Assembly: GCA_964572225.1 (NCBI GenBank) | Contig: CAZNFR010000005.1 | Location: 1,383 to 65,382, forward strand | DNA length: 64,000 nucleotides | Source of the DNA: an uncultured Bacteroidaceae bacterium | Lineage (GTDB): Bacteria; Bacteroidota; Bacteroidia; Bacteroidales; GCA-2748055 | Reading direction: 5' to 3' | The notes under the pieces: generated by a model | Database searches by the model: none | The model's input: the letters and a program-made list of their open reading frames with translations, nothing else | What the model was told of the DNA's origin: nothing | Shown: positions 17,848 through 46,956 of the stretch, in pieces | Layout: every line of letters starts with the position of its first letter | Position numbering within the stretch: the stretch's first letter is position 1 | Position numbers and translations under genes: made by a program

Positions 17848-19155
17848 TTAGTCCCTTCTCAGGGAGTTTGCAATCTGATACCCAACGATTCTTTCATATC
17901 GTGAGGTTGTACCGTAAAAATAAACCAGAATTATATAATCATTCTCCGTCTCATAATAATTACCTTCCACAAATCCCAGGTCTGCTTTTTCAGAACCGGT
18001 TGGGGCATAGGCGATCTGGTAATTATAGTACCCCTGCTTAAGAGTGAGGGTTAAATGATAAGTTTTGGACTCAAAATCATAAATCATACGATTTTTCTCA
18101 TTCAACTGCCAGTTCGTGATTCCGCCAAAAACGTAAAAATCACCATCTACAAGGGGTTCTGCCCAGGGAAGGTCAAAATAAACATTCACATAATCGGCAT
18201 CTGTGTCGCTGTTCTTCTCTTCCTGTATTTCAATGAAAAACTTGCCGTTTAGATCATCTTCAAAAAAATAAGGCTTGTTATCCCTGGGTTCATCGGGAAA
18301 AAGCTGAACATGAAAACGATCGTTTTCAAACTCAATATTTCGAATATAGGGGGATTTATACCTCATGCTTTTAATATCAAACCATCGGAATTCCCGCCCA
18401 GCCATAAATACATTTTCCATTTGATAGTCGTAATCCATAACCCCGTTACGGTCGAACAAAGGTTTCAGATCGTCTATGGAATTGTCCCATCTTCCATTTT
18501 GGAGTATTCTCACCTTGATGTCATTGAAAGGATCTTCAATTCTGAATGATCCATAACCAACCCGGAAGTTGATCTGGTGTCCTATATCCCTGTAAATAGA
18601 CATCACGGGTCTTTGAATGTTAACATCCACATTCATGATTTTTTCAGCTACCATGAACTTTTTGATCAGAACCAGGTCATTTTCATCAAAATTCTCATAG
18701 ACAACCAGAGCATAGTTGCCCGAAATCCTGAATTTTACATCGGGGTTGGGGAGCTTCAGGGTATAATTTATATAACTTGTGTAGGTATTAAAAGAATACT
18801 CGTATTCTTCAATCTGGTTCTGGAGACTACCTTCGATGAATTCACTTTCCGGAAGCGGTGTGGGCTTCCATTCAGAATCACAATGAATAATTTTATAGTT
18901 ATAGTTTCGGATTTCCTGACTGAGATCATCGAACTTGAGTATGAGACCTGTTTCTCCCCTTAAGTCGATTATGGGATAACTTAAACGCCAGCCCTCCCTG
19001 AACAAAAGGACTGACCGAATATTATCCTTAAATATATTTTCACTGAGAGTATCGCCGGGAAAGAATTGTGCCTTGATCCCACCAGAAGCCAGAAGAGAGA
19101 TCAACATTGAAAGCAAGGGCAGGAAAACCGGTTTTTTTCGAACAGATTTTTTCAT
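17848..19155 (-). CDS. DUF5103 protein (type IX secretion translocon plug-like), signal peptide
   Basis: 435 aa. Signal peptide ending in KAQ; LKFDDL, YKIIHCDSEWKP, SGNYALVVY, LTLKQGYYNYQ, EGNYYETENDY match the DUF5103 family as I recall it. Confidence 0.8.
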   Translation of the reverse strand: MKKSVRKKPVFLPLLSMLISLLASGGIKAQFFPGDTLSENIFKDNIRSVLLFREGWRLSYPIIDLRGETGLILKFDDLSQEIRNYNYKIIHCDSEWKPTPLPESEFIEGSLQNQIEEYEYSFNTYTSYINYTLKLPNPDVKFRISGNYALVVYENFDENDLVLIKKFMVAEKIMNVDVNIQRPVMSIYRDIGHQINFRVGYGSFRIEDPFNDIKVRILQNGRWDNSIDDLKPLFDRNGVMDYDYQMENVFMAGREFRWFDIKSMRYKSPYIRNIEFENDRFHVQLFPDEPRDNKPYFFEDDLNGKFFIEIQEEKNSDTDADYVNVYFDLPWAEPLVDGDFYVFGGITNWQLNEKNRMIYDFESKTYHLTLTLKQGYYNYQIAYAPTGSEKADLGFVEGNYYETENDYIILVYFYGTTSRYERIVGYQIANSLRRD

Positions 19156-34821: not shown

Positions 34822-37575
34822 TTAGTAGCCGGGAATTTTTTCCATTTCCCGGATAAATGCATCCTGATATCCCATCTTTTGCAGTCTTTTCAGTTCATCC
34901 AGTGCTGCCTCCATGCCTTCAAAATCACCAATAATATAACGGAATATTCCGTCATCACCCTGAATTTCCCGGATACCTATAAGCGGTTTAAAATAGTTTT
35001 TTCCAACAGGTACTTTCAATGCCCTTAGTTGTATGGTCAGATTTACTGAGCTTTTGCTGGTTGTGTTTTCAACAGAAGTTGTCCCAAATCGTTCGAGATC
35101 AATGATAAAAGCATCCAGATATCCCCGGTTCCTGAGTTCCTGAAGGTCTGTGGCTGCTTCCTCCTCGCTTTCATACTGGCCATAAATAATCCGGTAAAAA
35201 CCATCATCACACTTTTTCACTTCCACTTCACTGAGATGAACATAATTTTTGGCGTTAGATGGCATTTTCAGTGCCGCTAGCTGGATCCCAAAATGATCGG
35301 AGGTAGAATTAATAAGGGTACTTGCCAGACCGGAATGCTGTTGCAGGTTGGTACGATTGATAACCCTTGCACTGGGGAATTCCTGGAAGGCAATTGAGTT
35401 TTTAACTTCCTCGGCATGCCGTACGGAATAGAATAGCCCTAATGTGTAGAGGTAGCTCGAATCCACAAGAACCTCGGTTACCTCCTCCTGGGTAATCCGG
35501 TTTACCGAGGAGAAATAGGATCGGGGAAGTGGAGATTCTGACTGGGTTAGAAGGAGGGTATACTGGCTACTTCGTTTGGGTTTAAGATAATCGGGAATTT
35601 CAATGGGTTCAATGGTAATATTATGCTCATTTGAAGGAAGAATCTTAATTTCCACGCTTCGATTCAGTTTTCTTCCTTCCGGATTATCACTTCCGTCCGG
35701 ATTGGTATTCATCGCCAGATTATTTGTCTCCCCTAATCCGCGGGTGACAAAACGAGTTCTTTCAATTCCTCTGGAAACCAGGTATTCAAGAACCGAGTTG
35801 GCCCTGCGTTTCGATAGTTCAAGGTTATACCCGGGAGTTCCTTTACTATCTGTGTGGCCAATAATTTCGATATATAGTTCCGGATATTTGAGCATCAGCT
35901 GATACAATCGTTCGATCTCCAGGATAGCTGTGTCTTTAAGTTCGGATGAATTATAATCAAATAGCAGGTTCTTCACCACAAGATATTCCCCGGAACTAAC
36001 CTCTGTGGATGTTAATTCCAGATCCAGGTTTAGCTCTGAACGCTCAAAATCCTTCTCGACTGAGAGTCGTTCCACAAGGGTTTCATAATTGGAAGCACTG
36101 GCAGTAATGGAGTATAATCCCGGATGGATCACAAGACTGAATTCTCCGGTTACCCGGTCTGGTTTGAGTGTGTCCCGATAGTTTTCATCTCCGATTTTAC
36201 CAACAGTAACACGGGCATCTTCAGGAAATTCTGCATCGTCCATGAGCTTCAGCTTCCCTTTAAGGGTTATTTTCATTTCCGTGACCGGAGGAAGTATAGT
36301 TAACTCCTTGATGGCGGCGTGGTTCTCTTCGGGAAGGATCGGACCTGCATACAGAGCAGTCCTGTTTTTCTCGACCGGGTAGAAAAAGAAATTGTCATCT
36401 GTGGAATTGACCGGGTAGCCCAGGTTTACGGGTACGGTCCATCTTCCTCCGGGTTGCAGATCTGACCTGTAGGTGTCGAATCCCCCCATTCCATCATGGC
36501 CCTGGGAGGCAAAATATAAGGTAAGCCCATCCTCAGTAATAAATGGACTGTTTTCATGATAGATGGTATTAATGGTGGGGCCCAGATTTTCGGGTTCCTC
36601 CCATTTTCCACGTGCATTTAATGTGGTTCGAAAAATATCCTGTCCACCCAGACTTCCTTTGCGATTACTCACAAAATAAAGGGTTTTTCCATCGGGTGAA
36701 ATGGATGCATGAATTTCCCAGAATCGGGAATTTACGGGTTTGTCCAACTTTGCCATCGGAGTCCAGCGATTTCTTTCAAAAAAGCTGACATAAATGTCCG
36801 CTCCGAAGTTATTCATTCTGACCAGGTAAAGTGTGTTTCCATCCGTGGAAATGGAGGTTGGATAGGCATCTCCGTCCGATTCAATCTGTGGGGTAATATT
36901 GACGGGGTTCGACCAGATATTCTCACTTTGTTTTTTTACCATCCAGACTGCCTGGTAGAATTTTTCCTGTGTCATATAAATCAGGGTATTCCCATCACCC
37001 GACAACACCGGATTATAATTTTTTGCAGATTGCGGTATGATATCATCCAATAACCGGGTTTTTACATTCACCGGTTCTTTCATATATTTTTCCGCCCTGT
37101 TACAGGCCTGGATTTGTTTATCCACGAAATCAATTTCATATACATCATTAACCCGGAGGGTTTTTTTGTATTGATTAAAGGTTTCTACAGCCTTATCCAA
37201 CCGATTATCAATCTGATAGGCGGTAGCCAAAAGGAAGAGAGTATGGGGGGGTGATTTATCTTCAGAGAAAGTGCTTTCGAAATATTTTTCCGAGATATGC
37301 TCAATGGCATACTCAAGGTAGGGGATCGCCCTGGATTTCTGTCCGGGGATATTCAGATAACATAACCCAATGCGATAGTTAATATTTGCATTTTGTGAGT
37401 TTGCCCGGTACAATCTTAAATAAGCATTCAGTGCTTCTTCGTATTCTTCTGACATTAAAAAGTATTCCGCATCCTGAAAGTAAACGCGAAGATTTTCATC
37501 CTCCTGCGCCTGGCAATGAAGGTGGACACAGAGAAGAGAAAAAACTCCTATAGCTGAAATGAAAAATAATTTCAT
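34822..37575 (-). CDS. TPR + PD40 + carboxypeptidase-regulatory-like + OmpA_C + 3x SPOR-like protein (PorE-like)
   Basis: 917 aa. Signal peptide (..CQAQ); TPRs; PD40 repeats (ASISPDGKTLYFVSNRKGSLGGQDIF); OmpA motifs GHTDSKG..YNLELSKRRA..NRSVE; three C-terminal QL..YR..G.F...EA..L..GY.DAFI repeats. Confidence 0.88.
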   Translation of the reverse strand: MKLFFISAIGVFSLLCVHLHCQAQEDENLRVYFQDAEYFLMSEEYEEALNAYLRLYRANSQNANINYRIGLCYLNIPGQKSRAIPYLEYAIEHISEKYFESTFSEDKSPPHTLFLLATAYQIDNRLDKAVETFNQYKKTLRVNDVYEIDFVDKQIQACNRAEKYMKEPVNVKTRLLDDIIPQSAKNYNPVLSGDGNTLIYMTQEKFYQAVWMVKKQSENIWSNPVNITPQIESDGDAYPTSISTDGNTLYLVRMNNFGADIYVSFFERNRWTPMAKLDKPVNSRFWEIHASISPDGKTLYFVSNRKGSLGGQDIFRTTLNARGKWEEPENLGPTINTIYHENSPFITEDGLTLYFASQGHDGMGGFDTYRSDLQPGGRWTVPVNLGYPVNSTDDNFFFYPVEKNRTALYAGPILPEENHAAIKELTILPPVTEMKITLKGKLKLMDDAEFPEDARVTVGKIGDENYRDTLKPDRVTGEFSLVIHPGLYSITASASNYETLVERLSVEKDFERSELNLDLELTSTEVSSGEYLVVKNLLFDYNSSELKDTAILEIERLYQLMLKYPELYIEIIGHTDSKGTPGYNLELSKRRANSVLEYLVSRGIERTRFVTRGLGETNNLAMNTNPDGSDNPEGRKLNRSVEIKILPSNEHNITIEPIEIPDYLKPKRSSQYTLLLTQSESPLPRSYFSSVNRITQEEVTEVLVDSSYLYTLGLFYSVRHAEEVKNSIAFQEFPSARVINRTNLQQHSGLASTLINSTSDHFGIQLAALKMPSNAKNYVHLSEVEVKKCDDGFYRIIYGQYESEEEAATDLQELRNRGYLDAFIIDLERFGTTSVENTTSKSSVNLTIQLRALKVPVGKNYFKPLIGIREIQGDDGIFRYIIGDFEGMEAALDELKRLQKMGYQDAFIREMEKIPGY

Positions 37576-39059
37576 TTTTCTCTGGATGTTTTCCCGGACT
37601 CCTGCTCATTTATGAAATCAATGGTGAACTTATTATCGCCTGGAGTTAAAACCTTCAGGCTATCTGATCTCACATCATACCCAAGGGTAAATTTTTCTCC
37701 TGTTTCCTGGTCCGTAACAATAATTCTGAAGTTGTACTGGAATTTTTTCGGTTTTAGGGCCAGTGCATCATTCCGGGGGAGGATACGTACACGGTAGATA
37801 TCTTCAATACTGTTATTATCAACCCCCTCAAATAAAGCAAGATATCCTGCATCCCCTTCTGCCACAGGCTGATAAAATCGATTGTCGTTGGTGGTGTTTA
37901 TAGGAAAACCAATATTAACGGGCTTTTGCCATTTCCCGTTCCCATCCTTTTTGCTATAAAAAATATCAAATCCTCCCATATTGAAGTGCCCTTTAGATGT
38001 AAAATACAGGGTCTCACCTTCATTCAAAAGATTTGGGCAATCTTCATCTGCTTCAGTGTTAATCGCGGGTCCGAAGGAGATCAACTCTCCCCAGCTGCCA
38101 TCATTCTCCAGGTTTGCATAGTAAAGATCAGAGCCTCCGGCACCCCCTCTTCTTTCGGAGGCAACCAGGATTCCCCTGCCGTCGGGTGTAAAAGAGGCAA
38201 AGTGTTCATCTTTGGTGCTATTTATATTTTTCCCCAGCTTTTCAGCCTTTGACCAGACATTATTATTAAGTTCACTAAAATAGATGTCTTTCCCGGTAAA
38301 ACCATTCTCTTTGGTAAGCAAAAGCTTCGTGCCATCTGCTGAAAGAGAGGTCGGAATCATATCTCCATCAGAACCCACCTGAGGAGTAATATTTACCGGT
38401 TCAGTCCATTTATCATCTACTTTTCGGCTGAACATAACCGCATCGTAAAATTTTTCTTTTCTCATGAAGACCATCACATCCTCCCTCAAATTCACAACCG
38501 GCTGGTAATTCACCCCTCCATTGTTAATATTGCTTCCGGCACTTATTTTTTCAATGTTGAGAGGGGAATCCTTAATGATCTTGGCTCTTTCACAGGCTGC
38601 GACCTCATTTTCTACGATCCTGACATTATAGTTTTTTTCGAAATTCCTTATATCCCGAAAGGTTTCGTAAGCTTCCAGGGCTTCGTCAAGGCGATTGTCA
38701 ATTCTGTAGGCATTACCCAGATAAAACCATGCATGATGTGGGGCTTTCTTTATATCAAAATTTCTTTCCTTGTACTTCATGGTTGTACTGGTGACGGCTT
38801 TTTCCAGGTATGGGATAGCAAGCCTTTCCAGTCCTTCGATATTTAGATAAGACATTCCGACCCGATAACTGAGATTGGTATTTTCGGGGTTCAATCCGGC
38901 CAGTTGTTTGAACAGGTAAACGGCCTCTTCGAACTCTTCGGTGGCAAAGAAAAACTCGGCATCATCAAAAATCTCTTCCTGTGAGCTATTCAGTTTTTGC
39001 GCGAAAACAATGGAATAGCAGTTTATGAGTGTGAACAATAGGAGTATTGTTTTTTTCAT
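37572..39059 (-). CDS. TPR + PD40 secreted protein without OmpA domain
   Basis: 495 aa. Signal peptide (..VFAQ); same TPR/PD40 core as its neighbours; short C-terminal tail. Confidence 0.85.
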   Translation of the reverse strand: MKKTILLLFTLINCYSIVFAQKLNSSQEEIFDDAEFFFATEEFEEAVYLFKQLAGLNPENTNLSYRVGMSYLNIEGLERLAIPYLEKAVTSTTMKYKERNFDIKKAPHHAWFYLGNAYRIDNRLDEALEAYETFRDIRNFEKNYNVRIVENEVAACERAKIIKDSPLNIEKISAGSNINNGGVNYQPVVNLREDVMVFMRKEKFYDAVMFSRKVDDKWTEPVNITPQVGSDGDMIPTSLSADGTKLLLTKENGFTGKDIYFSELNNNVWSKAEKLGKNINSTKDEHFASFTPDGRGILVASERRGGAGGSDLYYANLENDGSWGELISFGPAINTEADEDCPNLLNEGETLYFTSKGHFNMGGFDIFYSKKDGNGKWQKPVNIGFPINTTNDNRFYQPVAEGDAGYLALFEGVDNNSIEDIYRVRILPRNDALALKPKKFQYNFRIIVTDQETGEKFTLGYDVRSDSLKVLTPGDNKFTIDFINEQESGKTSREK

Positions 39060-39144
39060 TCCAGGCAGAGTTTAAACCATTTAAGACAAAGAAACCCGGT
39101 GGTAAGATAATATTTTACCACTTTGATTTCAAAATGTTACAAAT

Positions 39145-39152
39145 CAAATGTA
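39145..39152 (-). promoter_or_regulatory. Internal -7 element upstream of the 495-aa TPR/PD40 gene
   Basis: TACATTTG on the minus strand. Confidence 0.55.
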
Positions 39153-39212
39153 CAATTTTCCGTGAATATTGACCGGGTTAAATGAAAGCCTGTGAAAATC
39201 CCGTATAAAAGA

Positions 39213-41081
39213 TCAGTTATTGACCTTAAGTTCGTCCGGAACCTCTACCTCTTCCAGTTCAATCCATTCAAAGGGACGGGTCGTGATCCTGAATTCAACG
39301 CGACGGTTAAGCATTCTTCCTTTTACTGAGTCTCTTCCGTCGGGTGTGGTATTCATGGCAGCGGGTTTATTTTCGCTGAAAGCCCGGAGTGTCAGCCTTT
39401 CCCTGTCTATCCCCTTGCTTACCAGGTATTTAATAACCTCCGAAGCGCGACGCTCGGAGAGAATCTGGTTATAGGCATCGGGTCCTTTGGAGTCGGTATG
39501 ACCGTGCACCTCAATTTTCAGCTGGGGATATTCATTCATGGCTTCGGTAAGATCATTCAGTCTTCCTTTTGCTATATCGTTTAATGCATAGCTGTCGAAA
39601 TCAAAGAATACAGGTCTGATATTGAAGCGGAGCTTTTCGGGTTCTTTGATTTCTTCTTCAACCAGTACCGGTGTTAATACTGTTGTATCGGGTATAATAG
39701 GTTCTGAATCCATTTCTGAGATATCTTTTTCTTCAACAGCTTGTGCCTCTGTTTCTCCAAGGATGGGTGTTTCTTCTTCCTCAAGTGCAATATCCTCAGT
39801 CGGGAGAGTTTCCACCCTGTAAATGTCACCACTTCCAATGCCTTCAGGATCATACCTTGTAATATAACCCTGAACATCCTTTTCTTTCCCCAGTGGATAA
39901 AAGAAAACATCATCATCGGTTGTATTCAGGGGGAAAGGAAGGTTTACAGGTTCGGACCAGTTTCCATCATCGCCCAGGGTGGAATAAAAAATATCATAGC
40001 CTCCAATGGTAGTATGCCCTTGAGAACTAAAGAACAGGGTTTTGCCGTCGGGGGTAAGAAAGGGACTATCTTCGTTTAATGAGGTATTAATAGTACTACC
40101 CAGATTTTGAGGTTCGCCCCAGTCTCCGTTTTGCATTTTACGGGAAAAGAAAATGTCCATTCCTCCCAGGCTTTCGCTACGATTACTGGTAAAGTAAAGA
40201 GTATTGCCATCGGGAGAGAGAAATGCATGTGATTCAAAGAATTTTGAGTTTATCGGCTTTCCGATATTCTCTGATCTCGACCATGTCCGGGCACGGTACT
40301 CGCTTACCATAATATCTGCATCGAAATTGGAGATTTTTGACAGAAACATTTTAGTCCCGTCATAGGAGAGAGAAGTGACGTATTGATCCCCATCCGATTG
40401 AATCTGTGGAGTCACATTCACCGGGTTTGCCCAGCGGCTACCCTGTTTTTCAACAAAATAAACCGCATCATAGAATTTCTGCTCCGATACGTAAGCCATA
40501 AATTCACCGTTGCCTGAAAGGACGGCATTGAGGTTATCAAGACCCGTATTTAGCGGTGTTCCCAGATTCTCAATCCGGATTTTTGCCGGGTTTTCTATGG
40601 ATAGCTTAGCCCTCTGGCAGGCCTCAATCTGTTGAAGGGTGTATTTGATTTCAATCTCATTCTTAGCCTCCAGTTTATCTATATACCGATTATAGGCAGA
40701 GATGGCAGAATCAAGCTGGTAGTTGATACGGTAGGCATTACCCAGGAATAAAAGTGCATCAAAAGGGGCACGTTCTTCATTGAAAATACCTTCGCGATAA
40801 TTTCCGGCAATATTTTTCACTGCCTCTTCAAGAAAGGGGATTGCTTTTTCCTTTTCCCCGCTGATATTGAGATAGCATACCCCAATTTTATAATTAATAT
40901 TTGCATTATTCTGGAAGCCCGCATCGTAGACTTTCATGAAGGCAGACAGAGCGTCCCTGTAATCCTCCTCTTCCATAAAGAAAATGCCATCAAAAAAATT
41001 GACCCGGTCTTCATCCTTCTGTGAATAGGAAAAACTACAGCCAAGCCCTATAAGCAGAAGGATCAGGGATATTTTTCTCAT
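39213..41081 (-). CDS. TPR + PD40 + OmpA_C protein (PorE-like)
   Basis: 622 aa. Signal peptide (..SYSQ); PD40 repeats; acidic linker; VFFDFDS, GHTDSKGPDAYNQILSERRA, NRRVEF. Confidence 0.88.
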   Translation of the reverse strand: MRKISLILLLIGLGCSFSYSQKDEDRVNFFDGIFFMEEEDYRDALSAFMKVYDAGFQNNANINYKIGVCYLNISGEKEKAIPFLEEAVKNIAGNYREGIFNEERAPFDALLFLGNAYRINYQLDSAISAYNRYIDKLEAKNEIEIKYTLQQIEACQRAKLSIENPAKIRIENLGTPLNTGLDNLNAVLSGNGEFMAYVSEQKFYDAVYFVEKQGSRWANPVNVTPQIQSDGDQYVTSLSYDGTKMFLSKISNFDADIMVSEYRARTWSRSENIGKPINSKFFESHAFLSPDGNTLYFTSNRSESLGGMDIFFSRKMQNGDWGEPQNLGSTINTSLNEDSPFLTPDGKTLFFSSQGHTTIGGYDIFYSTLGDDGNWSEPVNLPFPLNTTDDDVFFYPLGKEKDVQGYITRYDPEGIGSGDIYRVETLPTEDIALEEEETPILGETEAQAVEEKDISEMDSEPIIPDTTVLTPVLVEEEIKEPEKLRFNIRPVFFDFDSYALNDIAKGRLNDLTEAMNEYPQLKIEVHGHTDSKGPDAYNQILSERRASEVIKYLVSKGIDRERLTLRAFSENKPAAMNTTPDGRDSVKGRMLNRRVEFRITTRPFEWIELEEVEVPDELKVNN

Positions 41082-41242
41082 CTCAATAGGTTTTTAATTA
41101 TAGTCCTTATAAATATAAGGGGATTATCAGAATAAATGAAACGCTAAACCGGCATTACTGTTTCATTATTCGTAAAAAATATCCTTACCCATACTAATTA
41201 TGTGTGAAATTTGAACTTTCACAGATTCAGTCTGCCGTTTTC

Positions 41243-44200
41243 TCAGGTCCGGTCCTCTTTTTTCTTCCTTCGTCTTTCAAACAAGATGAGGAAAAGAATC
41301 ACCAATCCTTCAGCGAGAAGTATCAAAAGGGTCAGTCTGGCTCCCCGGCCGGATTTTCCATGGTCCTTTTCGGACGGTTCAAATTCATCTATGGTTTTTT
41401 CCTCGAAGGGAAGATCGCCCTGCAGGTATTTTTCAATTACCTCGGAAAGTTGCCCGCTGGTAAAACCGTAACTTTCTTTTAGAGGGGTTAAATATTCAAT
41501 GAGATCCCGGAGATTATACAAGGGGGTTTGTCCGAGGTTAACATCGGTAAGAGCCTTGTTAAGACCAGAGTAATCAACAGACAGCCGGTTGAGTTCGTCC
41601 AGCATTTTCTCCACATAAAACCGGGTCATCCCATCAGAAACTGTTTGGTAAACAATTTCCTCACTCATATCTTCAAGACTGAGAAGGTATTGTATCAGTT
41701 CCGGTATGGTGGTAATTCCCATTTCCCTGAGGTTAAGATCCAACAGGATGTCTCTCAGAGCACCATCCGAATTTGTGATCAGGTAATCCAGGAATTCGTA
41801 AAGGTCAATGTATTCAACATAATGCCTGAAATGATCGACCACTTCTTCTTCTTCAAGAGCCCGGTTATTTTCAGATTCTCTAAGGAGGTACCTGTATAGC
41901 TCGTGAGACCAGGGAGTATCTGCTTCCATTTCTTTCAAAACTTCTTTCAGCTCATCACTGGCATTTTTGAGAATAATCCGCAATATTTGTGAAGTAGGGA
42001 TCTCTTCCGCCCTAAGCATAACGTCGATAAGGTCGGTAGTAATGTCTTTCTCCCTGTCCGATTCCCTGAGCAGATAACGGTACAACTCACTTCTTCCCAT
42101 ATCCACAATCTCCCCGCGGTCTATAGATTCCAGGAACGCCCGTGTATCTCCTTCTGAAAGGACAATTAACCGCTCAAAAAGCCTGATTGCATTGGTAGAG
42201 GCAAAATAATCAGCAAGCATCTGATTAATATCCGTATTCGTATAGCCATTGTCCGGTGCCTTATCCCTGAGATGGGTAATCAGTTCACCAAAGGATTCGA
42301 TACCCTGATTCTCGGGATCGATGCCAAGAAGTGTTTCTTTGAGATTGCCGTTTGCAAATGCTGAAAGGTCCCTGATCAGTTTCTCTATATCCCTGTAGTT
42401 CTGGGTTTTTGCCAGGGCTTTGGTCACATCAGACGGGGAATACTTGCCTTTATCAGTGTTGGAGTAGAGGTTATCGATCAATTCCTTTCGGTTTTGTATT
42501 TGGCTTTTTTCCGGATCCAGCTCCTCAAGATAGTTTTTCAGATTTTCATCGGAATTTTCCTGAAGATTGCCAATAAGCTTTTCCAGTGCGTACAATTCAT
42601 CGACACTGGTAATCAACCGGTCTACATCACCATCCGTAAACTCCTGATTTTCTGATTCATTGAACAGATGAAGGATAAGCTCATCTTTGTTTTCTATTCC
42701 CTCTTCTTCCGGATCCAGCCCCATGAGATAATCGAGGAGGGAACCGGTTGCGGCACCCAGAAGAAGATCTCTGAAAAGCTCAGCCTGTGTAAGTCCGCCG
42801 GCTCCGGGTGACAAAACTGCGGCCGGACCTGAGCCTGTGCCTGAAGTTCCTGCCCCTGGAGTCTGCCCGGGAAGAAGGTTTGAACCAGCCCGACCGTCTC
42901 CAGGTACTTCCCGGGTATCAATCTCAGTCAGGGGTTTTTCCGGATCCATGATCCTGAGCTGCTTTTGTATAAGATTGCCCTTATCGTCGGTGAGGGTGAG
43001 AACCACGGTATTTTCCCCTGGCCTTGGATCAAATTCCACTTTTTGCTCCCTTCTGCCGGCTTCGACCGATTCACTAAAATAGTTTTGTCCCTGATTAAGG
43101 GCATTGACCTGAACGGTTGCATCTTTGGAAGCCCTGAACCTGATTTCCACCGGTTCACCTTCCTTGGCATAAATCAGAGAGTCGGAAAGAATCTTCAACA
43201 GTTCTTCCTCTTCTCTTTGGTCAGTTATGGTTGGTACTGCACTAAGAATTATCGGGGTTGCAAAAATGAGCCCACTTGGCCCGGTCACATTCCTGGATAG
43301 TTCCAGTTCTTCTATTTTACTATGAAATTTGTCACTATCAAATACCAACTGGTATTGTCCTTCAGGAGCTTTAAATTTGAAACGCCCATCCCTGTTTGGA
43401 TTAATGGTTGAAAGAGTGTCGGCCGAGCCTTTTTCCACCAAAGAGATCTTTACTTCGGAGGAATCCACTTTCACTCCCATATAATCCAAAAGACCTTCAA
43501 TTGCAAACATCCTGGGATTATCCGGACTGTAAATGGTAATCCGGTGGATATCATGCCTGCCATTCCCCGACTGATCGAATCTTGAATAGTAAGCTGCCTG
43601 ACCGTTTTTTACCGGATTAAAAAACTGATCATCGTCTGTGCTGTTGATAGAATATCCGATGTTAACGGGTTTTGCCCATGAGCCGTCTGCATTTTTTCGG
43701 CTCATGAAAATATCGTACCCTCCCATGTTATAATGACCATAGGAACTGAAGAAAATCTTTTGGCCATCTTCCGTAATAAAAGGATTATCATCGTTGTAGG
43801 GGGAATTGATCACGTTTCCAAGGTTGGTAGCTTCACCCCATTCTCCATTGGGTAATCGCTCCGAACGGAAAATGTCAAGTCCGCCAAAGGAGCCCTTTCG
43901 GTTGGAGGAAAAGTAGAGTGTCTTTCCATCCCTGGAAACACTGGCATGGGATTCCCAGTATTTAGTATTAATGTTCTCGTTAAGTTTCCGGAGAGGGGTC
44001 CATTTCCCGTTAATCAGTTTGGTTACATAAAGATTCCCGTCAAATTCATCGTTCCGGTAGATGTACATTTCGGTTCCGTTATAGGAGAGGCAGGTAGGAT
44101 AAACATCCCCGTCAACCCCAAGTTCGGGGACAATATTCCGGGGAGCAAGCCATTCCCCATTTACCTTTTCTGTATAAAAAATGGCATCATAGAACTGAAG

Positions 44201-44794
44201 CCTGGAAATAAAGGCCATTTTGGTTTCATCGCCCGATACAACCGGATTGATGTCGGCAAAACGGGTATTGATCTTTGATCCCAGGTTTTCTGAGTCGATA
44301 TCAATGGGTTTCTTCATCAGACTCTCTGCCGCATCTACGGTAGCAATCTGTCTTTCCACGAGTTCAACATCATAAATCTCCGGATCCAACCTTACCAGGA
44401 ACAGATTGAAATACTCCCGTGCTTTGGAAAGCTGGTTGTTGATCCTGTAAGCAGTACCGAGGTAATATAAAACCTCAAGAGGAGCTCCGGTTTCCCGAAA
44501 GGAGTTTTCCTTAAACTTGGGATTTATATTTTCGGCTGCCTCTTCAAGGTAACGTATGGACTTGTTTTTTTCGTAAGGATTGTTGAGAAGACATACCCCG
44601 ATCTTGTAATTAATGTTATCGTTGTCGGGGAACTGCCGATGGATTCTCAAGTAGAGAGGGAGCGCTTCATTAAACTCTTCAAACAGAAAATAAGATTCAG
44701 CCTGAAGAAAAAGCTCTCTGAAATCTGTGTTCTGAGAATAACTTGAAGAGAATGATAAAAGGGTGATTATGAGAAAGAAAACGGTTTTTTTCAT
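41243..44794 (-). CDS. TPR + PD40 + beta-sandwich + helical-repeat protein with C-terminal membrane anchor
   Basis: About 1183 aa from MKKTV (44794). Signal peptide; TPR/PD40 core; Gly/Pro/Thr linker; ~7 helical repeats; final TM helix and RRRKKK tail. Confidence 0.85.
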   Translation of the reverse strand: MKKTVFFLIITLLSFSSSYSQNTDFRELFLQAESYFLFEEFNEALPLYLRIHRQFPDNDNINYKIGVCLLNNPYEKNKSIRYLEEAAENINPKFKENSFRETGAPLEVLYYLGTAYRINNQLSKAREYFNLFLVRLDPEIYDVELVERQIATVDAAESLMKKPIDIDSENLGSKINTRFADINPVVSGDETKMAFISRLQFYDAIFYTEKVNGEWLAPRNIVPELGVDGDVYPTCLSYNGTEMYIYRNDEFDGNLYVTKLINGKWTPLRKLNENINTKYWESHASVSRDGKTLYFSSNRKGSFGGLDIFRSERLPNGEWGEATNLGNVINSPYNDDNPFITEDGQKIFFSSYGHYNMGGYDIFMSRKNADGSWAKPVNIGYSINSTDDDQFFNPVKNGQAAYYSRFDQSGNGRHDIHRITIYSPDNPRMFAIEGLLDYMGVKVDSSEVKISLVEKGSADTLSTINPNRDGRFKFKAPEGQYQLVFDSDKFHSKIEELELSRNVTGPSGLIFATPIILSAVPTITDQREEEELLKILSDSLIYAKEGEPVEIRFRASKDATVQVNALNQGQNYFSESVEAGRREQKVEFDPRPGENTVVLTLTDDKGNLIQKQLRIMDPEKPLTEIDTREVPGDGRAGSNLLPGQTPGAGTSGTGSGPAAVLSPGAGGLTQAELFRDLLLGAATGSLLDYLMGLDPEEEGIENKDELILHLFNESENQEFTDGDVDRLITSVDELYALEKLIGNLQENSDENLKNYLEELDPEKSQIQNRKELIDNLYSNTDKGKYSPSDVTKALAKTQNYRDIEKLIRDLSAFANGNLKETLLGIDPENQGIESFGELITHLRDKAPDNGYTNTDINQMLADYFASTNAIRLFERLIVLSEGDTRAFLESIDRGEIVDMGRSELYRYLLRESDREKDITTDLIDVMLRAEEIPTSQILRIILKNASDELKEVLKEMEADTPWSHELYRYLLRESENNRALEEEEVVDHFRHYVEYIDLYEFLDYLITNSDGALRDILLDLNLREMGITTIPELIQYLLSLEDMSEEIVYQTVSDGMTRFYVEKMLDELNRLSVDYSGLNKALTDVNLGQTPLYNLRDLIEYLTPLKESYGFTSGQLSEVIEKYLQGDLPFEEKTIDEFEPSEKDHGKSGRGARLTLLILLAEGLVILFLILFERRRKKKEDRT
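41426..42784 (-). repeat. About seven tandem ~63-65-aa alpha-helical protein repeats
   Basis: GLDPEEEGIENKDELI / ELDPEKSQIQNRKELI / GIDPENQGIESFGELI in repeats 1-3; ELYRYLLRES identical in repeats 4 and 5; DLNLREMGITTIPELIQYL / DVNLGQTPLYNLRDLIEYL in repeats 6-7. Confidence 0.75.
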
Positions 44795-44844: not shown

Positions 44845-44863
44845 CAAATGTATAAATTTATAC
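44845..44863 (-). promoter_or_regulatory. -7 element overlapped by a perfect 14-bp palindrome, upstream of the TPR/PD40 array
   Basis: TACATTTG (minus strand, 44845-44852) overlaps GTATAAATTTATAC (44850-44863). Confidence 0.55.
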
Positions 44864-45000: not shown

Positions 45001-46956
45001 TTAAATTGCGTTTCGTTTCAATCCGAGGATATTTTTCCACAACAGGATAAAGTCGTTTATCATCCTGTAATCCCTTGCGTAATCGAGGTTTATTCCTTCC
45101 GTTATTTCGGAAGGGATATCCTCATCCATAAAATTACAGGGGCTGAAGATTCCTTTTTTCAGGACCGGTAGGGCTGAATTGTCCACTCTGGTGCAATAAC
45201 CTATCCAGGTGAATTTTCCTCCCAGGACCTTCAGGGCCTGAAGAAATAACCTTGCGTAACTTCGTATGAAAAGCGGAAGAACGGGAAACAGGATAATGAT
45301 AAAAAAGGATGAAAGGATATCAAACAGCCGTTTAAGTCTGCGGTTTTTCCCACGGGAAACCGAATTAAAGTGAATAAGATAAAGCTCACCAGAGGTATGT
45401 ATGGAATTGCTGCCGATGATGTAGAGACTTTCCGGTGGGGCTATTTTATATTCAATTCCGGTCTGACTCAAATGAGTCATATTTTTAATGATTTCAGCAG
45501 AGGAAATGTCCCTTGCACAGAAAACTACTTCTTCGACATTGTAAACCTTCAGAATTTCCGGCAATTTCTCCAAATTGCCCAGGTATTCAGTTCCGGGTGC
45601 GGTTCCGGGACTTACAATGCCAATAATCTCCGGACGTATTCGGGTCCGGTTTAGAACGGAACTCACCCTCCCGGCTTCCTCCCGGCTACCGATAATGATC
45701 AGCCGTTTCTTGCGATTGGCATAAAATTCATAACCTTTAATGCCCAGCAGATTAGCCGACATCCTGTGAAGGAGAAGAATAATAAGCACCCATGCACTTC
45801 CAAGAAGAATAAGCGCTCTTGAAAACCTTAAGGATTCAGGAAGCAAAGCATAAAGTACAAGTATGATCAATGTTCCGGTAATGTGACCCTTCAGCAGGTT
45901 CCATAGTTTTATGGGTTTTTCGTACGCGCCCGAATAATATAAGCTAAGCAGCCAAACGCCAATATAAACAGGAACAATGTACCTGGTAAATTCCCCGGGA
46001 TAATAGTTGGGAATCCCGAACTTGAACTGTTCCCAAAAAGGGGTTAGAAAATAGTACCCGAGGAAAATCAGGGTAGCATCCAGGACGGGCTTATATATCC
46101 GGTTTACAAATCGTTTGATTATGGAAAGGGTGGCCCGGAAATAAATGGCCAGGTTAATCAGGAAAGAAAAAGCCCTGGCATTTTTCTTCGAGAAATGTTT
46201 CCTGGCAAAAATGATCATGGCCTTGTAAAAAACAAGCACATAATTGATGCTGCCTTTCTTCGTACTTTCACCCTTATAGTGGATTATGTTGGTTTTCGGG
46301 AAGTAAATTACCTTGTATCCTGCCAAATTGATGCGGTAGCTCAAATCCACATCCTCTCCGTACATAAAAAACGTTTCATCCAGCAACCCCGTTTTCTGAA
46401 GGGCTTCTTTCCTGAGAAACATGTAGGCTCCCGATAGCACTTCCACTTCATTGATTTCATATTCAGGAAGATAACCCAGATGGTACCTGCCAAAAATGCG
46501 GGATTTGGGAAAGAGAGCAGAGAGACCAAATATCTTGAAAAAAGAAACCAGGGGTGTGGGTAAAGAACGTTTGGATTCAGGAAGAAATTTGCCCCTCCCG
46601 TCGATCATATGGATTCCGAGGGCACCCACTGAAGGATGACCGTCCATATACTCGATACATTTTACAAAACTATCTTCCTCAACGATGGTGTCAGGATTAA
46701 GCAGCAGGCAATACCTGCCCCGGGCCAGAGAAAGAGCCTGATTGTTCGCTTTACTGAATCCAAGGTTTTCCTGATTCTCGATTAGACTTACAAAAGGAAA
46801 CTTTTCCTTTATAAGGGCATTGGAACCATCGACCGAATTATTATCGACCACAAAAATCTCAGCCTGAATATTCCGAATCGCTTTTTCAACAGAATGAAGA
46901 CACTGTTCAAGGAAGTGTTTTACATTATAGTTTACGATGACGATACTAAGATCCAT
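45001..46956 (-). CDS. GT2 glycosyltransferase fused to a TM region and a degenerate WcaJ/phosphoglycosyl-transferase-like C-terminus
   Basis: LSIVIVNYN, VVDNNSVDGS, LLNPD, FFMYGEDVDL; TM helices; LIIIGSREE Rossmann-like part; RLKRLFDIL. Confidence 0.85.
   Translation of the reverse strand: MDLSIVIVNYNVKHFLEQCLHSVEKAIRNIQAEIFVVDNNSVDGSNALIKEKFPFVSLIENQENLGFSKANNQALSLARGRYCLLLNPDTIVEEDSFVKCIEYMDGHPSVGALGIHMIDGRGKFLPESKRSLPTPLVSFFKIFGLSALFPKSRIFGRYHLGYLPEYEINEVEVLSGAYMFLRKEALQKTGLLDETFFMYGEDVDLSYRINLAGYKVIYFPKTNIIHYKGESTKKGSINYVLVFYKAMIIFARKHFSKKNARAFSFLINLAIYFRATLSIIKRFVNRIYKPVLDATLIFLGYYFLTPFWEQFKFGIPNYYPGEFTRYIVPVYIGVWLLSLYYSGAYEKPIKLWNLLKGHITGTLIILVLYALLPESLRFSRALILLGSAWVLIILLLHRMSANLLGIKGYEFYANRKKRLIIIGSREEAGRVSSVLNRTRIRPEIIGIVSPGTAPGTEYLGNLEKLPEILKVYNVEEVVFCARDISSAEIIKNMTHLSQTGIEYKIAPPESLYIIGSNSIHTSGELYLIHFNSVSRGKNRRLKRLFDILSSFFIIILFPVLPLFIRSYARLFLQALKVLGGKFTWIGYCTRVDNSALPVLKKGIFSPCNFMDEDIPSEITEGINLDYARDYRMINDFILLWKNILGLKRNAI

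Follow-up and report, generated by a model that had tools for sequence, protein, structure and literature searches.

An array of four PorE-related TPR-propeller proteins with different tails in Bacteroidales: a candidate Tol-Pal-like envelope scaffold

Why would a bacterium keep, side by side, four genes that set one kind of periplasmic head on four different C-terminal tails? The question is raised by a stretch of 64,000 nucleotides (the window; positions 1,383 to 65,382 of contig CAZNFR010000005.1, assembly GCA_964572225.1) from an uncultured bacterium of the Bacteroidales, the DNA of which comes from a microbial-mat metagenome study and the sequence of which was found in three DNA runs and in no RNA run. 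Within the window, four consecutive open reading frames (ORFs), all on the minus strand, fill positions 34822-44794. An earlier annotation made from the letters of the DNA, here called the sequence-only reading, took them for a modular periplasmic scaffold associated with a type IX secretion system (T9SS). The answer that we prefer, and to which we give a probability of about 0.5, is that the array forms a layered, Tol-Pal-like envelope scaffold of ancient PorE-sister paralogues. The four genes, here named A to D, are as follows.

34822-37575, minus strand: gene A, 917 amino acids (aa); signal peptide, head, CRD-like beta-sandwich, OmpA_C-like domain and three SPOR-like modules
37572-39059, minus strand: gene B, 495 aa; signal peptide, head and a 70-aa tail
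39213-41081, minus strand: gene C, 622 aa; signal peptide, head, acidic linker and OmpA_C-like domain
41243-44794, minus strand: gene D, 1183 aa counted from MKKT; signal peptide, TPR block, TolB-like propeller, two beta-sandwiches, linker, stalk, transmembrane (TM) helix and basic tail

The stop codon of B and the ATG of A overlap (ATGA), and gaps of 153 nt and 161 nt separate B from C and C from D, respectively; for D, a GTG lying 12 codons upstream of MKKT gives the longest frame. Public records name these proteins merely "OmpA family protein" or "PD40 domain-containing protein." ORF calls, a MAFFT alignment and Pfam searches reproduced the four-gene minus-strand array with a shared head that the sequence-only reading had described, including its coordinates, its quoted motifs and its PD40 and TPR repeats. 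By Pfam, every one of the four has PD40 and TPR repeats, A and C also have OmpA, and A alone has SPOR. The common part is the N-terminal ∼410 aa, over which the other proteins are 32 to 44% identical to A and 80 columns are invariant; the invariant columns include those of the motifs N.N(I/L).Y..G..YLN, AY(R/Q)I, FYDA(V/I), PVN(I/V)TPQ..SDGD, GH..MGG(F/Y)D, and N(T/S)T.DD.F(F/Y). The common head is real, but to speak of the "same" propeller head on all four proteins was an overstatement, because the heads share no more identity than this.

We then considered the fold of the head in AlphaFold2 (AF2) models of A (23 sequences; mean predicted local distance difference test score [pLDDT], 80.9) and D (26 sequences; mean pLDDT, 74.9, with the head at 80 to 95). 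The model of A places TPR helices at residues 29-166 and propeller strands at 171-427, and the number of blades, estimated from DSSP strand groups and secondary-structure strings, is about five. TolB structures were the top Foldseek matches for both models (E values of 2e-10 to 8e-10 over ∼250 aligned columns, with a root mean square deviation of 4.5 to 7 Å; E = 8e-10 for D). At the sequence level, the only relatives with a solved structure were those of the OmpA domain. Sequences and models together support a CpoB-like TPR block and a TolB-like propeller head in each array protein. TolB itself is a different matter: with the TolB model TIGR02800 (cut-off, 343 bits), B scored 17.9 bits and the best protein of the genome 59 bits, and this search found canonical TolB absent from the genome.

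The nearest named relative is PorE. The PorE model NF052230 matched the array proteins across the whole head, with scores of 245.8 (A), 105.1 (B), 200.7 (C), and 107.2 (D) bits that stay well below its cut-off of 600 bits. The true PorE of this genome scored 720.3 bits and is encoded on another contig (C34:5615-7555, within the interval C34:5591-7588). Conversely, a profile built from the four array heads and searched against the genome gave 680 to 700 bits for the array members and 129 bits for PorE; it also retrieved a 696-aa paralogue on contig C14 (212 bits) and a fifth paralogue (340 bits) at C34:31923-33245, which is cut by the contig end and lies 24 kb from the true PorE. In a FastTree phylogeny of 268 heads, 30 PorE orthologues from 30 genomes formed one clade (support, 1.0) and 237 array-family heads formed a separate one (support, 0.855 to 0.865), at a branch length of 1.05 from PorE. 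The core-domain phylogeny that had been proposed as a check thus found the heads monophyletic with respect to PorE. By sequence, the array proteins are paralogues of a PorE sister family, and none of them is PorE.

The four tails differ in kind, and the longest is that of D, two parts of which have the following positions.

41420-42787, minus strand: helical stalk of D, aa 670-1125, seven ∼65-aa repeats in a stalk of ∼450 aa
41246-41344, minus strand: membrane anchor of D, a TM helix followed by ERRRKKKEDRT

Behind its head, the AF2 model of D has two immunoglobulin (Ig)-like beta-sandwiches (residues 429-517 and 540-617), a disordered Gly/Pro/Thr linker (620-667), and then the seven repeats, each of which runs from a long helix through a short one and an "LDPE..GI" loop to a further helix (pLDDT, 60 to 88). 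The repeats align in register with a mean pairwise identity of 22%. No Pfam family matched the stalk, and homologues of the stalk tail, which diverge fast, sit only on TPR+PD40 proteins. The TM helix spans residues 1151-1172 by hydropathy and 1151-1182 in the model. Because this helix and the polybasic tail behind it are kept in about 60 D orthologues, we regard D as a protein that is fixed in the inner membrane by its C-terminal end and lies for the most part in the periplasm; the C terminus would be cytoplasmic by the positive-inside rule. The seven helical repeats and the TM anchor were as first read from the sequence, but the beta-sandwiches number two, not one. A glutamate of the TM helix was considered as a proton relay and was rejected, since it is not conserved among orthologues. 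As a separate observation, the helix-loop-helix motif LDPE..GI....EL in the repeats (670-1125) resembles an EF-hand loop, one residue out of register, and, among PDB sequences, the stalk matched only the EF-hand part of a calcium-dependent protein kinase (CDPK), and that weakly (E = 0.0045).

In C, the tail begins with a 65-aa linker (residues 426-490) that contains 20 acidic and 5 basic residues and ends with an OmpA domain (PF00691, 71.5 bits), so that residue counts and Pfam agree with the acidic linker and OmpA domain noticed at the outset. The diaminopimelic acid-binding triad of PorE is Asp576/Asn584/Arg591 (PMC7192894), and mapping C onto these residues assigned its triad to Asp530/Asn538/Arg545. 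In A, the peptidoglycan-binding triad Asp576/Asn584/Arg591 is invariant across 23 A-type orthologues. The OmpA domain of A was matched by PF00691 at residues 538-628 (67.6 bits) within an OmpA_C-like domain spanning 538-646, which the AF2 model shows as an alpha/beta domain from 540 to 646, and Foldseek matched the model of A to TolB, to OprF/OmpA domains, and to the C-terminal domain (CTD) of PorE (6top), with a TMt of 0.84 to 3td5. Sequence, and for A the model as well, supports an intact OmpA-type peptidoglycan-binding pocket in C and A.

SPOR domains target denuded glycan at the septum. The tail of A had been described as a beta-sandwich, an OmpA domain, and three SPOR-like modules, and most of this description stood. 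The beta-sandwich (residues 436-521) is CRD-like, with weak CarboxypepD_reg matches. The three modules lie at residues 672-740, 759-826, and 845-912, and each shows the order beta-alpha-beta-beta-alpha-beta in the AF2 model, where the last two span 762-826 and 846-910. These two are SPOR domains by Pfam (PF05036; 39 and 24.3 bits, with the cut-off at 21); the first, 672-740, has no Pfam match and is SPOR-like by the order of its predicted secondary structure only. B, finally, carries a 70-aa tail without any Pfam family match, in agreement with the "essentially none" of the sequence-only reading; with no recognizable anchor, it is a predicted soluble protein of the periplasm.

The signal peptides of A to D end in [A/S/G]-Q, as do those of about 230 homologues, and contain no conserved Cys. 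In the Bacteroidetes, such an ending marks the substrates of signal peptidase I (the Q-rule; PMC5837995), which supports export of the predicted precursors by Sec and their cleavage by signal peptidase I before Gln. A lipoprotein reading of C (GLGC, Cys15) was discarded, as the Cys is absent in the orthologues, all of which end in ...SQ or ...AQ. It had been noted early on that all four proteins have Gln at position +1 and no lipobox, unlike PorE of Porphyromonas gingivalis, which is a lipoprotein. The first part was borne out in all four proteins, but the lack of lipidation is not special to the array, because the genome's own PorE on C34 also follows the Q-rule (...AVPADA-Q) and has no lipobox Cys.

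How far does the likeness to PorE go? PorE of P. gingivalis (PG1058) combines a TPR block, a five-bladed PD40 propeller, a CRD-like sandwich, and an OmpA_C domain; A has this full order and the same triad, and adds its three SPOR-like modules to them. The CRD is missing from C and the OmpA domain from B and D, and D adds the stalk and the TM helix. All four differ from PorE of P. gingivalis in scoring below the model cut-off, in falling outside the PorE clade, and in having no lipobox.

To see how widely this set of proteins occurs, we used D as the query and kept one genome per species, which yielded 80 loci; each of them belongs to a metagenome-assembled genome (MAG) of uncultured Bacteroidales or Bacteroidota. 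The neighborhood follows a conserved order, in which a symporter gene, recR, lysA, and a gene for a family 2 glycosyltransferase (GT2) precede the array and GNAT, HSDR_N, holA, rhomboid, and HAD genes come after it. Forty-two arrays from related MAGs are complete, bounded by the GNAT gene. The number of members varies from 2 to 5. An inner-membrane member is present in 40 of the 42, a count partly inflated because the loci were found with D; a bare member is also present in 40, and nearly all include an OmpA and/or a SPOR member (23 arrays hold SPOR-only members, 18 hold OmpA-only members, and 18 hold members of the OmpA+SPOR type). The precise arrangement of the window, with inner-membrane, OmpA, bare, and OmpA+SPOR members in this order, was found again in 4/42 arrays, and gene order is stable. 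The synteny check that had been called for in related MAGs thus found that the combination of inner-membrane, bare, and peptidoglycan-binding members recurs. We found no publication describing the array locus in the literature; that it might already be known as a T9SS accessory locus was a reservation attached to the sequence-only reading.

Each of the four genes groups with orthologues from other genomes: the D-type clade has 81 members, each with a stalk and/or a TM anchor, and there are a C clade (25 members; support, 0.999), a B clade (25 bare members; support, 0.999), and an A clade (5 members; support, 0.998). Recent local duplication, the origin that the phylogeny had been meant to examine, was rejected on this account, since A to D each fall in their own multigenome orthologue clade; the genes are ancient paralogues, and the duplications predate the divergence of many families. 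Tails have been gained and lost inside the clades. We also sampled 151 genomes of the order, covering about 137 families, for B-like matches at E ≤ 1e-25. Such a head was present in 111/151 genomes, and about half have three or more. In a phylum-wide sample, 4 of 150 other genomes had a match at E ≤ 1e-45. The family, common in the order sample and rare in the phylum sample, is hence essentially an expansion within the order, and the set, as judged from these comparisons, is kept across many Bacteroidales families.

Conservation of this kind could also arise if the four proteins had separate, unrelated jobs and the array were a product of old tandem duplications sitting in a stable core-genome neighborhood. 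The paralogues are ancient and 32 to 44% identical, their number and tails vary as described, and the flanking genes (lysA, recR, holA, rhomboid) are housekeeping genes whose synteny would be conserved regardless. In a cultured relative, Tenuifilum thalassicum, a single 821-aa A-like gene occupies the syntenic site upstream of the GNAT, HSDR_N, holA, and rhomboid genes (CP041345.1, 823616-846081), and three more family members are dispersed on the chromosome, with no obvious D-type protein among them. Yet many families of the order retain the inner-membrane, bare, and peptidoglycan-binding classes in the same sequence, and in the window A and B are joined by the ATGA overlap. On balance we hold separate jobs to be unlikely.

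The kinship with PorE also calls for a secretory explanation to be weighed. The array proteins could be T9SS accessory anchors, the heads of which bind PorP/SprF-like shuttle barrels, so that either the T9SS itself or complexes with type B cargo would be held at the wall, the septum, or the inner membrane. Besides the sister relationship and the match of the PorE model over the whole head, PorE homologues are known in operons with SprF/PorP-like and type B CTD cargo genes (PMC9143113, PMC12618676), and the genome has seven PorP-like genes whose products are possible partners. None of the seven, however, is on the array contig (C5), and no PorP-like ORF was seen in the 80 related loci. Elsewhere in the genome, the gene for a 490-aa PD40 PorE-like protein has a PorP/SprF-like gene (188 bits) immediately upstream of it (C21:17583-19908), a classical pair with which the array contrasts. 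Several PorE paralogues per genome, thought to be wall anchors, also occur in Flavobacterium johnsoniae (e.g., Fjoh_3950), but there the PorE-like genes adjoin an SprF-like shuttle gene and a cargo gene; the array has neither and includes members without a wall-binding domain.

The distribution of SprA bears on the same question. SprA was found in 146 of the 151 order genomes, and the array family in 111/146 SprA-positive and 0/5 SprA-negative genomes; the SprA-negative genomes are few, and two of the five come from one family. Thirty-five SprA-positive genomes are without the array family, while true PorE was found in 38/41 genomes. The sequence-only reading had drawn support from a T9SS plug-like gene at 17.8 kb. 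This gene is present (17848-19155; PF17116, 136 bits), but 17 kb of DNA with unrelated genes separate it from the array, and nothing was found in support of a link between the two. With no PorP-like gene on the contig, a distant plug gene, and many SprA-positive genomes without the family, the T9SS link of the array is weak; we think it improbable that the proteins serve as T9SS anchors.

We return to the Tol-Pal-like scaffold. How the outer membrane is kept attached and is constricted at division in the Bacteroidota is a question posed by the lack of an identifiable tol-pal locus. Bacteroidetes have been reported to lack identifiable tol-pal loci, and PorE has been proposed as a compact substitute, a tether in which CpoB, TolB, and Pal are fused and which may move to the septum (PMC12204202); the idea of such a fusion in PorE-type proteins is thus already published and is not new here. 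The SPOR modules of A and the inner-membrane stalk of D fit this idea and extend it. In the scaffold that we envisage, D would be held in the inner membrane by its C-terminal stop-transfer helix, its head extended on the Ig-like domains, the linker, and the helical stalk. C would be bound to peptidoglycan through its OmpA pocket, and A likewise, with additional binding to denuded septal glycan through its SPOR-like modules. The heads may bind a common or related partner on the outer-membrane side, or one another, and B could be a free shuttle or a competitor. Such a set might link the inner membrane, wall, and outer membrane and stabilize the envelope, the division site included, a role that would be Tol-Pal-like in a lineage without canonical TolB. 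Of the modular periplasmic scaffold proposed at the start, the part that survives is that the tails are recognizable localization modules on a common head and that their grouping is conserved, whereas the tie to the T9SS is weak.

The resemblance to Tol-Pal has several sides. The propeller is TolB-like, the OmpA domain Pal-like, and the TPR block CpoB-like. D recalls TolA, an inner-membrane protein that crosses the periplasm on a helical region, but D is anchored C-terminally and TolA N-terminally. The SPOR domains of A imply a septal link, as for Tol-Pal. On the other hand, the array proteins fail the TolB score and lack the TolB N-terminal domain, no TolQR genes are nearby, and there is no lipid anchor like that of Pal.

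Several observations weigh against the scaffold. The partners of the heads may differ, because the heads are only 32 to 44% identical. As they carry no lipid anchor, C and A are unable to tether the outer membrane alone. No TolQ/TolR-like motor gene adjoins the array, and the TM helix of D has no conserved charged residue. The family is missing in 40/151 order genomes, and the dispersed members in T. thalassicum indicate that the array as such is dispensable. A is absent from many close relatives.

For the last point, in some close relatives (loci L022:18033-18674 and L029 of related MAGs) A is reduced to a 213-aa remnant of its tail or is gone, and the OmpA+SPOR member is therefore being lost in some lineages.

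A bolder version of the scaffold would make the array the Bacteroidales counterpart of Tol-Pal, with D as the inner-membrane arm, C and A as the wall and septum arms, and B as a soluble, TolB-like shuttle. With a partner in the outer membrane, these would make up a single trans-envelope machine, responsible both for holding the outer membrane in place and for driving its constriction when the cell divides. We regard this version as rather unlikely.

Two further families help to place the array. CHU_0125 of Cytophaga hutchinsonii, a Pal-like outer-membrane integrity protein, has the same TPR, PD40, and OmpA architecture, but the array proteins are not members of its family: with the CHU_0125 model NF053607, the four scored 121 to 234 bits against a cut-off of 620. 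The phenotype of a CHU_0125 deletion indicates that such proteins can serve envelope integrity and not only secretion (PMC5891637). The division proteins FtsN, DamX, DedD, and RlpA share SPOR domains with A, which differs from them in having three tandem copies on a protein that also contains a PorE-type head and an OmpA domain. The picture is one of a PorE sister family that diversified by anchor swapping into inner-membrane versions with a new helical stalk, wall-bound versions, versions predicted to target the septum by SPOR domains, and free versions. The array provides concrete candidate genes for a trans-envelope tether, and it is a warning that not every TPR-PD40-OmpA protein should be annotated as part of the T9SS.

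The gene directly upstream of the array suggests one more explanation. It lies on the same strand (45001-46956, minus strand) and encodes a 651-aa fusion protein. Its N-terminal GT2 domain is followed by the membrane and linker portion of a polyprenyl glycosylphosphotransferase (positions 2-279 of the 445 in the model), whose catalytic C-terminal portion is absent. The array could be a periplasmic scaffold for a polysaccharide made by this membrane GT2, much as TPR proteins serve in synthase-dependent exopolysaccharide systems. Of the 42 complete arrays, 30 have a GT2 homologue no more than 2.5 kb away, which would suit such a role, but the other 12 have no GT2 neighbor. No outer-membrane export, Wzx/Wzy, or ABC export genes were found in the locus, the entire region is syntenic housekeeping DNA, and the OmpA and SPOR modules indicate peptidoglycan rather than a secreted polymer. 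We judge this explanation very unlikely.

For expression signals, we looked at Bacteroidetes-type -7 motifs, a sigma-70 promoter scan being ill-suited to Bacteroidota. Two motif matches precede array genes.

44845-44852, minus strand: Bacteroidetes-type -7 motif TACATTTG, ∼50 nt upstream of D; motif match only
39145-39152, minus strand: second TACATTTG motif, ∼86 nt upstream of B; motif match only

The two motifs would fit transcripts D-C and B-A. They are hints only, because the count of TAnnTTTG in the window is not above chance. Between the second motif and the start of B, in the putative 5′ leader of B, lies a hairpin with an 11-bp stem (39098-39122).

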